From NCBI GenBank assembly GCA_963824385.1, contig CAWGPD010000002.1, forward strand, positions 160,001 through 224,000: a stretch of 64,000 nt of DNA. The letters run 5' to 3'. Position numbers and translations under genes: made by a program. The notes beneath the pieces are model-generated. The model was not told where the DNA came from. It was given only the letters and a program-made list of their open reading frames with translations, and searched no databases. This document shows, piece by piece, positions 24,324 through 29,552 of this stretch. Each line of letters starts with the position of its first letter. The first letter of the stretch is position 1. The DNA is from an uncultured Nitrososphaerota archaeon. Its GTDB lineage: Archaea; Thermoproteota; Nitrososphaeria; Nitrososphaerales; Nitrosopumilaceae.

Positions 24324-24401
24324 GTCACAACTAAATTCAATTAGACCGCCTCACGATCATCCTTTTCTAATAGTGTCACATACAAATCCTGATCATATTC
24401 C

Positions 24402-24926
24402 ATGGATTTCTTTACTGGTAAAGAAATAGAGGTTCCTGAAGATGTAAAACGACTCTTACAGTTCAATGAAAAAGTCTTAATTTCAGCAGAGACAGCAAGA
24501 TCTGCAGCTCTGATAAATCCTGAAACTATCTTTGTTACTTCTCAAAGAGTCATAGTACGAAGACCTACAACATTGGGTTTAAGAAAAAATATTGAAGATT
24601 ACAGATTCACAGATATAGCAAATGTCCATCTGAAAAAAGGAATTATCAGATCTGGCATAGTTCTAAAAATGAGATTTCTCTCAGATAATGTAGAAGTAGA
24701 TAATTTTCCAAAAGATGTTGGAGATCGAATATTTAGACTAGTTCAAGACGGAGTTGCAGGAAGATTAACGCTTGCACAACCTCAGGATAATGTTGTCAAG
24801 ACACCAAATGCTATGCAACAAGAGATAATTGAAAAAATCAAAGAACTTGCAAAACTAAAAGATCAGGGAATTCTAACTGATATTGAATTTCAAAGTAAAA
24901 AATCAGAACTATTAACAAGACTCTAA
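24402..24926 (+). CDS. Bacterial-type PH domain + SHOCT domain protein
   Basis: IFVTSQRVIV PH motif; C-terminal IKELAKLKDQGILTDIEFQSKKSELL. Confidence 0.85.
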   Translation: MDFFTGKEIEVPEDVKRLLQFNEKVLISAETARSAALINPETIFVTSQRVIVRRPTTLGLRKNIEDYRFTDIANVHLKKGIIRSGIVLKMRFLSDNVEVDNFPKDVGDRIFRLVQDGVAGRLTLAQPQDNVVKTPNAMQQEIIEKIKELAKLKDQGILTDIEFQSKKSELLTRL

Positions 24927-24927
24927 A

Positions 24928-25485
24928 ATGATTTCAAAAAAACTATTACTAATTATAATTGCATCAATTGCTCTAGGTTCTATAATTGGTATGTCGATTA
25001 ATGCATCTGCTCAAACACCAACCATTCCAAGTTGGGTAAAAAATACTGCCAAATGGTGGGGTGAAGGTCAGATAAGTGATTCGGACTATATTCAATCTCT
25101 TCAATGGCTGATAGATAATGGGATTCTAAACATTTCAAAATCAAATTCAATGCAATCTGTTCCTCCACAATCATCACAAGATCAACAAAATGCACCTCAA
25201 GTGCAATCAAATACTGCAGAGGGATTTAGTGGAACTCAATGTGCTAGGGATCCGATTGCGCCCAGTGTAGTACACATGACAGGAAAATATACGAATGGGG
25301 CACAACCATATTCATTTGTCAGCTTAAAACTAGGTTTACTTGATTCAAGCGGAAATGTTGTTGCTACAGGAGCTGGTATAATATCTAACATTGGTACATA
25401 TTCCACCAAGATATTTGATGCATCTGCAATTTATGCAGGTCAGTTTTCTTCATGTGATATACAAGTTGAAACTCAATTACCATGA
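24928..25485 (+). CDS. Secreted protein with thaumarchaeal IPSWVKNTAKWW domain and FxLYD-like Ig domain
   Basis: Signal peptide; IPSWVKNTAKWWGEGQISDSDY..LQWLI; LGLLDSSGNVV. Confidence 0.8.
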   Translation: MISKKLLLIIIASIALGSIIGMSINASAQTPTIPSWVKNTAKWWGEGQISDSDYIQSLQWLIDNGILNISKSNSMQSVPPQSSQDQQNAPQVQSNTAEGFSGTQCARDPIAPSVVHMTGKYTNGAQPYSFVSLKLGLLDSSGNVVATGAGIISNIGTYSTKIFDASAIYAGQFSSCDIQVETQLP

Positions 25486-25625
25486 TAGAAAATATGGGAA
25501 AGGAGTTTTGTATCAAGTCTTACAGGACTCAAACATTCAGAGATTAGTAATTTAATTTTAAAAAATGAATCAAAATGAGTATTATTATCTCTGAAAAACT
25601 AGATCTGATTTATTAGCCAGAGATA

Positions 25626-28365
25626 ATGAAAAAAAACCCTGAATCTCTCTAGAATATTACTAGTTGTCACTATCACTTCATTATCAATTCTAGTTGGAAT
25701 TACATTCTTAGTGCCTATTTTTGCACAATACCAACCAGGGGGTGGAATTGGCAGCCTAGAAGAAGAGTTGCAACTTGCTAGGGAGAAATCAGAAATACAA
25801 ATTCAAACAACAAGTGGCGGAACTTTACAAGTTGGATTTTTCACAGATCCAATTAATGCAAATACTGGTAATCCAACTCAACTCAAAGTTAGTTTCATCA
25901 ACAAGCAGACAAGTCAGATACAACCCCATATTGATTACAAAATTTCCATATTACAGGGAGGAAATGTAGTGTTTGGAATACCTATAACTCATACTGCAGA
26001 AGGTGCAGTCAGCATTCCCTTTACATTTCAAACAGCTGGTACCTATCAAATCATAGTTGATGTTGAAGGAATACTCTTTCAGCCAATCCCTCCAGAGACT
26101 GCAACATTTACTATCAATGTAGTTGGATCATCTACTCAACCAATGGATTCCACATTTGTAACTGTGACATCGTCCACATCTATCATATCTTCAGGAGGAC
26201 AAGTAACAGTTACTGCAACAGTTACTGATCCTACCAACTTTCAAAATATTCCAACAGGGGCAGTAACATGGAGTGATGAAAACGTTGGCGGCACATTTAG
26301 TCAATCATCATGCATCTTGTCTGAAAATACATGTCTTGTAACATACACTGCACCTTACAATGTCCAAAATTCTATCACTATAACAGCAAATTATGTTGGA
26401 GATTCTACTCATAATTCAAGCTATTCAACATATTTGCTTTCAAGTGGGCCACAGAGTCAAACAGGTGCAATAACTGTAACAACTGACAAGTCTTCATATG
26501 AGCAGGGAGATTCGATAGTTGTTTCTGGAACAGTAAGTCAAGTGGATTCAATAAATCCACAAACACCAGTGATAATTCAGACATATGATGGAAATCATGA
26601 ATTTATCAGAGAAGATCGAGTTATTCCAGCATATGATGGACAATATTCTGTTACACTGAATCCAAATGCATTATGGCAAAATACTGGGGTCTATACATTA
26701 AAAGTAAAATATGACATCCCTAGTACTTTTTCACAAACAACATTTTACTTTAATTCGGGAATTAGTCCTAGTCCAGCACCTATTTCCACACAAAGTATTT
26801 CAAATGAAATCGATATGGTGCCAGGCGCAGGCTCTTCAGCAACTGCAGCCTGTGTTGCTACAAACACTTGCTTTTCACCAAATCCGATGAATATTCCACC
26901 GGGAACAACAGTAATCTGGAGAAATACTGATACTGTAAGCCACTATGTGACTAGCGGTCACTCATATGATAATAGAACAGGAACAATATTTGACAGCGGA
27001 AATCTAATCAAGCCACAGGGTACATACCAATTTACTTTTGCAAATCCTGGAACTATACAACTACTTTTGTACTGTCCATCCATGGATGATGGTCAAGTGA
27101 ATGTAGGTGTAGCATCTGGTATTACACCCATTGCATCTAATCCTCAAACAGCTCCTACAATAACTGTAACAACAGATGGGCTCTCATACAATTTTGGAGA
27201 TACAATTACGATATCTGGAAGTACAATGAATTACATTGATCAACCAGTAACTCTCATCATCAAAAGTCCAGCAGGAAATATCGTAAGTTTGGCCCAAGTA
27301 CCTCTAGGATCTGATAGGACATATTCTACATCAATAGATGCAAACACGCCCCTCTGGCAAGCTTCTGGTACATACACAGTTGTGGTACAGTTTGGCAGCA
27401 ATGCTAACATGGCCCAAACAACCTTTCAATTTACAGGACAACCATCATATCAACAATACCAATATCCTCAATTTCAACCAAATTCGCCTAATGAAATTGA
27501 TATGGTGCCAGGTGCAGGTTCTTCTGCCTCTGCAGCTTGTGTTGCAGCACATAATTGCTTTTCTCCAAATTCATTATACATTGCACCTGGAACCACAGTA
27601 ACTTGGAGAAATACTGATGCTGTAAGTCATTATGTAACTAGTGGTAGATCCACTGATGCTACAACTGGAACTGTATTTGATAGTGGCAATTTAATCAAGC
27701 CACAAGGTACATACCAATTTACTTTTGCAAATCCTGGAACTTACAACTACTTTTGTACTGTCCATCCATGGATGACTGGTCAAGTTATAGTAGGTCAAAG
27801 CGATATGCCAATGCCAACCCAATCTGGTTCTGTATTTATCCCGACTCAACAAGATATTCAAAGCATCAGTGAAGCAGAACAAAGTCAGACAATAGCAGCT
27901 GAAGTAAATGTTGGTGCAGGGCAATCTACAACTAGATCTATTGACAATAATGTCTCGGTTCAAACTATGCAAAATTCAGCTGATTCATTAAATGTAAATG
28001 TAAGTGCACCAAGCCAGACAGGACCAAAAGTGATTGCATTTAATCTCAATACTAGAACAATCAATGTAGCAAATCTAAATAATCTTGGTGTAATGTATGA
28101 TGGAAAGTTAATTCCTCCCGCAGCAAACGTAGATGATGTACTACATGCAAAATCAACAGACAATCCAAGTTTTGCAATTATAGTTACACAAAGTGGAGTA
28201 CAGATACTTGTCCTAGTTCCACACTTTTCAACTCATACAATTACTATAATGAACATGTCTCAGATTATGACTTCTACAGTTCCTGAATTTCCATTTGCTG
28301 CCATTGTATTGATTATAGCAACACTTTCTATTGTTGTGGTATCAAGAATGAGACATTCTCTATGA
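25626..28365 (+). CDS. Multidomain surface protein with two cupredoxin (plastocyanin-like) domains, Ig-like domains and PEF-CTERM anchor
   Basis: Two CFSP...PGTTV.WRN.D.VSH.VTSG repeats; second has YFCTVHPWM; C-terminal VPEFP + TM + basic tail; signal peptide upstream of 25711 probably starts at ATG 25626 via an indel in the A-run. Confidence 0.85.
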
Positions 28366-28658
28366 ATAAAGCTGGGAAAATAGCTGGATATTTGCTGGGA
28401 ACTATATTAATTTTAGTTGGATTTTTTTCATTTACGCAGGCAATTCTAACATCACAAAATCCTCTTGCCGTAGGTACAGTTAATGTGGAATTATTTTTAA
28501 CGTTATTTCTATTTGCAATAGGTGGTGCTGTGATATATTACACTGGTAAAAATTCTGAGAAGCGATCAAAATACATCTGTGGACACTGCAATGCTATTTT
28601 TGAAAGCGAAATTAATCTAAAAATACACTACGATTCTAAACATTTTTCAAAAAACTAA
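28362..28658 (+). CDS. Two-TM protein with C-terminal C2H2 zinc finger
   Basis: YICGHCNAIFESEINLKIHYDSKH. Confidence 0.8.
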   Translation: MNKAGKIAGYLLGTILILVGFFSFTQAILTSQNPLAVGTVNVELFLTLFLFAIGGAVIYYTGKNSEKRSKYICGHCNAIFESEINLKIHYDSKHFSKN

Positions 28659-28746
28659 CGTGATAATATTTTAACTATTAGAGAACTTTGTTAGTGTACA
28701 ATGTGTCGTAATTCTTTATAATCTTCTCATCGTAATAACATCGAAA

Positions 28747-29289
28747 ATGAATTCAAACATAAACAAACTCCAACTTTTGTCACTAACGGCAATTCTTGGA
28801 GTTGTAATGGTGGCATCACTTGCATCATCAAGTGCGTTTGCCGAGGTAAGCAATGTACCAAACAATTACAATAAAATTGCATATACTGCATACCATCCAA
28901 ACCCACAGTTTGTAAGTACTGCATACCATCCAAACCCACAGTTTGTAAGTACTGCATACCATCCAAACCCACAGTTTGTAAGTACTGCATACCATCCAAA
29001 CCCACAGTTTGTAAGTACTGCATACCATCCAAACCCACAGTTTGTAAGTACTGCATACCATCCAAACCCACAGTTTGTAAGTACTGCATACCATCCAAAC
29101 CCACAGTTTGTTGATATGAAAATGCGTGCAGATCAAAGATTTGTAGACATGTCATTTTTTGCAGACCATAGATTTGTCGACATGAATTACCATCCAATCC
29201 AACAATTTGTAGATGCGGCATATCACCAAATCCAACCGTTTGTAAGTACTGCATTTCATCCAGACCAAAGGTTTGTGAACAGAGCATAA
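28747..29289 (+). CDS. Secreted protein composed of twelve 11-aa repeats
   Basis: Signal peptide ending AFA; 7x TAYHPNPQFV(S/D) then 5 diverged units ending in FV(D/S/N). Confidence 0.85.
   Translation: MNSNINKLQLLSLTAILGVVMVASLASSSAFAEVSNVPNNYNKIAYTAYHPNPQFVSTAYHPNPQFVSTAYHPNPQFVSTAYHPNPQFVSTAYHPNPQFVSTAYHPNPQFVSTAYHPNPQFVDMKMRADQRFVDMSFFADHRFVDMNYHPIQQFVDAAYHQIQPFVSTAFHPDQRFVNRA
28885..29115 (+). repeat. 33-bp tandem repeat, 7 near-identical copies (coding)
   Basis: ACTGCATACCATCCAAACCCACAGTTTGTAAGT starting at 28885, 28918, 28951, 28984, 29017, 29050, 29083. Confidence 0.97.
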
Positions 29290-29552
29290 GCACCCCAAAT
29301 AATGCGGAATTGTCCCAAAGCCTTTTCCACATTTTCTTATTTCAAATTTCAAGTATTATCCCGAGTATTTACTTAGCCTGAACATCTAAATTCTAAGCAC
29401 TAATCCCAATAGGGTTCATCTTTTAATTTACGAACAAAGTGGGCCCAAAATAAGCCCACGTTGGTACGAATCCCCCCGGACTAGAATCTAGAATTAAATT
29501 TTTAGTAAGTAATTTCATAACTTAATTTTATAAAATATGAAAAGGTGTAACG

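Follow-up and report, generated by a model that had tools for sequence, protein, structure and literature searches.

Multi-core peptide precursors of the cyanobactin and YcaO type are characterized by a constant recognition sequence flanking each core, and their clusters encode a YcaO cyclodehydratase and dedicated proteases. In fungal KEPs, Kex2 dibasic sites (KR or RR) are found between the repeats. These fungal proteins consist of a signal peptide followed by tandem repeats, as set out in the available part of PMC7329392. Curlins carry the motif N-x-psi-x-psi-x-Q-x-G and form a two-sided parallel beta-solenoid with ∼22–23 residues per rung, according to the available sections of PMC10192328. 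An 11-residue period also marks hendecad coiled-coil stalks, which include DUF1640/CCDC90-like and DUF3782 proteins and trimeric autotransporter adhesins (PMC4786415 and PMC2373917, both in the sections available), as well as the Pentapeptide_3 family (PF13576). The gene described here lies in a 64,000-nucleotide stretch of archaeal DNA, the whole of which is referred to below as the window. Its product is a member of a previously undescribed family of secreted tandem-repeat proteins, narrow in distribution and part of an archaeal envelope regulon.

Translation of the open reading frame and hydropathy bear out the original prediction of a signal peptide followed by twelve 11-residue repeats, which are seven of TAYHPNPQFV[S/D] and then MKMRADQRFVD, MSFFADHRFVD, MNYHPIQQFVD, AAYHQIQPFVS and TAFHPDQRFVN (Table 1). 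The leader of the window protein, P0001, reaches a Kyte–Doolittle mean of 2.6 over 11 residues, and 21–29 of the first 36 residues are identical in nine relatives. On the same scale no hydrophobic segment was detected beyond residue 33. TRF reports a 33-bp unit at 28884–29111 (6.9 copies, 100% matches). At the DNA level the seventh unit differs from the six identical ones at 3 of 33 nucleotides and the last five differ at 8–18 of 33, in agreement with the proposal that seven near-identical copies expanded recently whereas five are divergent. The first two of the five variant units are free of Pro and similar to paralogue units as well as to hendecad coiled-coil repeats. Of the 12 units, 10 contain Pro, which makes up 13% of P0001; His accounts for 8–9% of the repeat tracts, roughly one residue per unit. 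As anticipated, no Pfam or NCBIfam domain of P0001 scores over the cut-off. The FV pair, which had been called invariant, is present in 12 of 12 units of P0001 but occupies positions 1–2 in just 23 of 64 distinct units of the family, and the claim stands for the window protein alone. An antisense reading frame (28727–29332) was rejected because it lacks a signal peptide and because the conserved promoter spacing points to the ATG of the forward strand.

Table 1. Features of the repeat gene and its surroundings, in positions of the window.
Feature	Position	Strand	Remarks
Repeat open reading frame	28747–29289	+	180 aa; translation
Signal peptide, aa 1–32, predicted cleavage AFA/EV	28747–28842	+	hydrophobic leader; relatives
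Lead-in of 14 aa	28843–28884	+	end already in repeat register
Twelve units of 11 aa, all together	28885–29280	+	followed by RA and stop
Seven recently expanded 11-aa units	28885–29115	+	two Pro each; 33-bp minisatellite, six identical copies
Five variant 11-aa units	29116–29280	+	
C-terminal RA and stop	29281–29289	+	without stalk, C-terminal module or transmembrane segment
Palindromic operator TTGT-N6-ACAA	28688–28701	+	59 nt before ATG
TATA-box-like TTTATAA	28715–28721	+	25 nt before ATG
Insertion of 5.2 kb, five genes including the repeat gene	24341–29523	.	not present at this site in G083, G025 or G003
Dispersed element, ∼55–70 bp, GTGGGC/GCCCAC inverted repeat	29423–29493	.	near right end of insertion

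Contigs of public sequencing runs were compared with the gene for 4 of 20 listed runs, those with small word shares (X14–X17, X19 and X20) being left out. An artefact of assembly, which had been named at the outset as a finding that would count against the gene, can be practically dismissed, because in DNA run X1 a 63-nt repeat contig has a depth of 75.8 against 11.1 for the flanking contig, a ratio of 6.8 compared with the 6.0 expected from the assembled array. Contigs of X1 and X2, which represent two DNA studies, one of them possibly the source sample of the assembly, match 28400–28913 and 29082–29392 with zero differences. The exact number of repeats is an estimate, as no single contig spans the array. 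A second strain in X2 holds the 3′ end of the gene with 8 differences in 134 nt. Absence of transcription had been listed as a further adverse finding. RNA libraries X13 and X18, from two studies, contain contigs identical to 29102–29337 and 28760–28897, and the loose ends of these contigs correspond to both paralogues in X13 and to a single one in X18. On the strength of these assembled contigs, which may stem from DNA, the gene is likely to be transcribed; a gap in RNA cover upstream of it was given no weight.

The host is an acid-soil ammonia-oxidising archaeon closely related to Ca. Nitrosotalea bavarica, and the core DNA adjoining the repeat gene is 95% identical to that of Ca. Nitrosotalea bavarica SbT1 (G025). 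The host genome (G000) harbours exactly three genes with the 11-residue repeat, each of a different architecture. P0001 is free. In P0002, encoded on contig C1, a Ser/Thr/Asn-rich stalk with 15 NxS/T sites stands ahead of the repeats, and in P0003, on contig C3, nearly Pro-free repeats are followed by a Pro/Thr linker and a 38-residue C-terminal module. AlphaFold2 models this module as two helices (pLDDT ∼70); its profile matches eight reading frames of the host genome, all of which look secreted by eye, and the module may act as a surface anchor.

A pattern and HMM search for homologues, suggested with the original prediction, was fruitful: intact members were found in 4 of 63 genomes of the genus (G000, G025, G081 and G083), and remnants in G024 and G003. 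The remnants were not counted as intact, given that G024 holds the first 33 residues only, followed by unrelated GC-rich sequence, and that the G003 copy is cut off by a contig edge; matches in G035 and G028 were dropped as signal-peptide matches to other proteins. The sequence beyond the signal peptide in G024 (C30, L003:1600–2457) looks bacterial and the contig is probably chimeric. The family was not found in 24 other genomes of the order, and in the class as a whole 2 of 301 genomes matched, both within the genus. A scan of metagenomes returned five family loci among 552 pattern matches, and two of the five, from different strains, differ by exactly one 11-residue unit. HMMER over 1.84 billion representatives gave 121 hits with one family member (P0012), and a further search added P0132. 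Nothing emerged from a word-based homologue search with P0001 among 5301 candidates or from a shorter-length search with query A3 among 274. In the ESM Atlas the best score for P0001 was 0.82 and the repeats of paralogue P0008 had no usable match. In the PDB, 0 sequence matches were obtained for A3 or for the module of C-terminal type in the window gene at 24928. An exact look-up showed 9 of 10 family proteins to be absent from the collection, and the literature search found no description of the 11-residue repeat family. The original description of the product as secreted, archaeal, uncharacterised and recently expanded is supported.

The insertion that contains the repeat gene is missing in three of three relatives aligned at its junction, and P0001 is therefore a stalk-less, module-less paralogue inside an insertion. 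The insertion site appears to be a hot spot between a 286-aa gene and Sir2: G081 shows the same, empty gene adjacency, and G024 holds other cargo, Kdp-like genes by eye. The upstream neighbours of the repeat gene are a 98-aa membrane/C2H2-like gene and an 884-aa cupredoxin protein, and downstream lie Sir2 and RNase Z; the earlier statement that no protease or modifying enzyme adjoins the window copy is thus correct. The 884-aa protein (25711–28365) is a secreted mosaic of two cupredoxin-like domains and Ig-like domains, with a PEFG-CTERM-like tail (23.1 bits against a cut-off of 25); its first cupredoxin copy seems damaged at the Cys/His/Met end, possibly by a frameshift near 27070. The dispersed element near the right end of the insertion has five more copies in the host genome and many in relatives, some of them directly after cupredoxin/PEFG-CTERM genes, and is possibly a recombination site or a miniature mobile element at variable gene cassettes.

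Several other loci of these genomes contain repeats. A large secreted protein encoded divergently from the module-bearing paralogue in three genomes (L023:562–3357, G000 C3:172800–174266 and L021:2142–3023) combines V-Q-x-V/QSVPV pentapeptide-like repeats with Ig-like domains and is a possible second aggregation-prone surface protein. Another secreted 11-residue repeat protein of the host (C3:133201–134170; L072:4202–5171) is Ala/Gln-rich, has the helical pattern of a hendecad coiled coil, lacks a Pfam match and appears split in the assembly. Outside the window, which spans C2:160001–224000, a 60-bp unit is tandemly repeated at C2:248549–260725 in ∼200 copies over 12 kb. The region C1:209554–210998 and several genes on C1, C3 and C4, such as the SagB-family gene, are split into frames, which suggests residual indel errors in the assembly.

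Approximately 60 nt upstream of the start codon are common to all three repeat genes, and in eight of nine family promoters the palindrome stands 59 nt before the ATG and is followed by a TATA-like box; the transcript of the repeat gene would be leaderless. The combined operator and TATA element has eight sites in the host genome (window 28688–28721; C1:212035, C3:175044, C3:189324, C4:11340, C4:20138, C4:176440 and C4:354205), occurs in 41 of 63 genomes of the genus and gave 0 control matches. Downstream of the eight sites are the three repeat genes, three genes for PepSY-type secreted proteins with His/Gly/Met-rich tails (two of them checked against Pfam), a gene for an HTH_45 regulator, which may regulate itself, and one further secreted gene. 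Thirty loci were fetched out of more than 100 operator matches and their downstream genes sorted by eye into 11 PepSY-type, 4 large surface, 2 other secreted, 2 repeat-family and 4 HTH_45-type genes, 6 copies of a 76-aa protein and 1 unclear case; judged in the same way, 19 of the 30 have a signal-peptide-like start. The operator, of which the literature search found no description, marks a genus-wide envelope regulon, and it is from this regulon that the family appears to have taken its promoter and signal peptide.

The likeness to curli CsgA/CsgB, as far as the available sections of PMC10192328 describe them, resides in a secreted, repeat-only protein with several paralogues per genome, half repeats of ∼11 residues and Gln recurring every 11 residues, and P0001 is modelled, at low confidence, as a two-sided beta-solenoid without caps. 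The family differs from curli in lacking the N-x5-Q-x-G motif, in being Pro- and His-rich and in being archaeal. Two regular expressions for curlin motifs given in those sections matched none of eight proteins, and none of seven members had a Pfam curlin match; the family models have pLDDT values of 36–45, whereas the mean for curlins in the same source is 83. Two AlphaFold2 runs with different queries and the same nine aligned relatives placed one strand in each unit of P0001 (pLDDT 45, pTM 0.35) and of P0008 (pLDDT 36 over the repeats). Both models align to parallel beta-solenoids (VIA: best Z 11.6, rmsd 3.0, 148 aligned; Z 7.4, rmsd 3.0, 125 aligned), matches that reflect the topology of the model and not homology, and Foldseek gave 0 matches at E≤0.001. 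A prediction of a three-copy complex scored 0.00, which is evidence in neither direction. A 22-residue super-period is present in 4 of 10 proteins (p<0.05), P0001 not being one of them (p=0.87). The suggestion of a self-assembling, curli-like or beta-solenoid fibre thus draws support from two low-confidence models, but not from the curli motif, which is absent.

An alternative to strands is offered by hydropathy, in which the 3.67-residue helix harmonic is the strongest (3.05) and exceeds the 2.2-residue strand harmonic (2.61). The repeats might build a hendecad (11/3) alpha-helical coiled-coil stalk, probably trimeric, with the window copy as a Pro-broken derivative, a reading that we consider improbable. 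With hendecad stalks, as far as described in the available text of PMC4786415 and PMC2373917, the family shares the 11-residue period, F/I, M/I/V and V/A/T at 3-4-4 spacing (F1-x4-x8, unit positions 1, 4 and 8 corresponding to the hydrophobic a, d and h), D-Q-R/K-F and H/Y-x-D segments and a variable copy number; the H/Y-x-D/N at positions 7–9 is reminiscent of the YxD motif in right-handed stalks of adhesins (PMC2373917, same text). The profile hits include head–stalk–membrane-anchor proteins with near-identical units (P0032 and P0036) as well as P0065, whose CCDC90-like match is weak. Against a hendecad set, units free of Pro score +8 to +10 bits each, and +6.2 on positions outside the selection pattern, and on such unfixed positions 71 of 71 distinct units are closer to hendecad coiled-coil than to Pentapeptide_3 beta-helix matches; this comparison is biased because the sets, 15 hendecad coiled coils picked by eye and 33 sequences Pentapeptide_3-like by pattern, come from the 121 hits of the family's own profile. 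On the other hand, Glu and Leu amount to 0.1% and 1.8% in the family against 9.3% and 7.6% in the comparison set, Pro takes a core position of the expanded units, and the family has an N-terminal signal peptide without a membrane anchor or Pfam match. Helix is absent from the repeats in the best AlphaFold2 model, also in the case of the paralogue that has next to no Pro. With Pro in 10 of 12 units, P0001 reaches −0.4 bits and is incompatible with a continuous helix; sequence that would allow one is confined to the module-bearing paralogues (1–2 Pro units). The Pentapeptide_3 beta-helix shares with the family the 11-residue period and spacings of 5 and 6 between aromatic residues. The final unit of P0001 scores +5.4 bits against it, and of the 33 hits with its pattern four were checked by eye, all Pfam-confirmed or pattern-matched and three of them Pfam-confirmed. 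Its small Ala positions are, however, Gln/His and Met/Ile/Thr in the family, the units average −10 to −14 bits and 0 of 7 members match the PF13576 model; this calls for a small residue two positions ahead of each Phe, whereas 57 of 64 distinct units have Gln/His at position 10.

The remaining rivals dispense with a regular fold or with a function of the intact protein. An exported, uncut and largely disordered polymer, with multivalent His/Tyr/Met sites that would bind metals or surfaces, for instance as a copper or iron buffer at the envelope, is unlikely but deserves consideration: the repeat tracts lie on the charge–hydropathy boundary between order and disorder (P0001 and P0003 on it), and once His is given a charge, 6 of 7 whole tracts lie on that line or below, towards disorder. 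The high His and Pro content, the low pLDDT together with weak selection on the sequence, the His/Gly/Met-rich tails of the co-regulated PepSY proteins and the presence of the cupredoxin protein in the same insertion point the same way. Disorder accords poorly with an 11-residue register kept in all but one unit, and copper control with the motif published for copper limitation in N. viennensis (PMC7785015, in the part available): it is not found at the repeat-gene promoter at up to 3 mismatches, and the window as a whole has 4 matches against 2.9 expected. Weak selection is apparent from a pN/pS of 0.6 in the repeats (103 close pairs), a figure that is the same when the antisense strand is read, and from equal entropy at the three codon positions; for this reason the register and the conserved columns may be a legacy of a single ancestral 33-bp unit. 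The same figures would suit a window copy that is a young duplicate, produced by minisatellite slippage under weak selection, with little function of its own and transcribed because it inherited a promoter. Consistent with such an origin, the insertion is absent from all relatives aligned, this is the sole copy with neither stalk nor C-terminal module, and so few genomes of the genus hold an intact family. A lack of function is nevertheless quite improbable, in that 103 repeat units were read without a stop codon or frameshift, the signal peptide (pN/pS 0.43) and the C-terminal module (0.26) are under purifying selection, the operator and TATA spacing are intact and the second strain in X2 also holds the 3′ end. 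The last rival, a multi-core precursor cut by an extracellular protease into 11-residue signalling or chelating peptides, formed half of the original prediction and is now very hard to credit. P0001 shares with KEPs (PMC7329392, in the part available) a signal peptide followed by tandem units, with FV in every one; in all four genomes with an intact stalked paralogue a SagB-family dehydrogenase gene adjoins it or is found close by, the host has two S8 peptidase loci (on C4, not the window's contig), and PepSY proteins share the operator. Yet FV fails as a conserved junction across the family, dibasic (KR/RR/KK/RK) or GG sites are absent from the repeat tracts in 10 of 10 proteins, the repeat proteins have no Cys, YcaO exceeds the cut-off in 0 of 63 genus genomes (G000 being 86% complete) and no dedicated enzyme adjoins the window gene. 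The SagB-like gene occurs in 55 of the 63 genomes, most of which lack the repeat family, is convergent with the stalked paralogue and has no operator. A stalk and a C-terminal module make little sense on a sacrificial precursor, and their presence on the paralogues suggests an intact, displayed protein.

The reading that we prefer, tentatively, is that the product is exported, remains uncut and self-associates as a His/aromatic subunit of a cell coat or matrix. It is supported by the occurrence of the same repeats on stalked and module-bearing paralogues and by the shared operator. Also in its favour are the single strand per unit in both AlphaFold2 models and their alignment to beta-solenoids, the 22-residue super-period of four family proteins, a strong 2.2-residue harmonic and the matching contigs of the RNA libraries. 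The protein would be exported by Sec and cleaved after residue 32. Each unit would then contribute a seven-residue strand, F-V-S-T-A-Y-H, and a Pro/Asx turn, and the units might stack two per rung into an uncapped beta-solenoid able to add to other copies. The module-bearing paralogue may hold the assembly at the surface, and a row of His residues, one per unit, could make assembly sensitive to pH and metals. Counted against a coat or matrix subunit are the low pLDDT, the Foldseek result, Pro in most units, a helix harmonic above the strand harmonic, units that all score closer to hendecad coiled coils than to Pentapeptide_3, weak constraint, strains that differ by a single unit, the absence of curli motifs, RNA evidence confined to contigs and the lack of a 22-residue period in P0001. 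The coat or matrix subunit, the disordered polymer and the hendecad stalk agree in making the product an intact envelope protein. A bolder version, which we regard as doubtful, envisages a three-part, curli-like archaeal fibre co-induced through one envelope operator, of recent origin in acid-soil Nitrosotalea, with the repeat gene providing a free subunit, one paralogue a surface-held nucleator and the other a glycosylated stalked subunit; the His row would keep the subunits soluble at pH 4–5 and lock them into beta-solenoid fibres when metal is bound or the pH rises. On this three-part scheme a hendecad coiled coil may have been the ancestor of the repeat, which would make it a switch from helix to beta still under way.

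The general importance of the family, which is in neither Pfam, NCBIfam nor the PDB, is limited by its narrow distribution and weak selection. Nitrification in acid soils is driven by Nitrosotalea, whose proteins of the outer coat or matrix are poorly characterised. If the product self-assembles, it would represent a short, easily expressed archaeal matrix polymer with a built-in response to pH or metal, and a tractable example of how a minisatellite, together with a borrowed promoter and signal peptide, can give rise to a surface protein.
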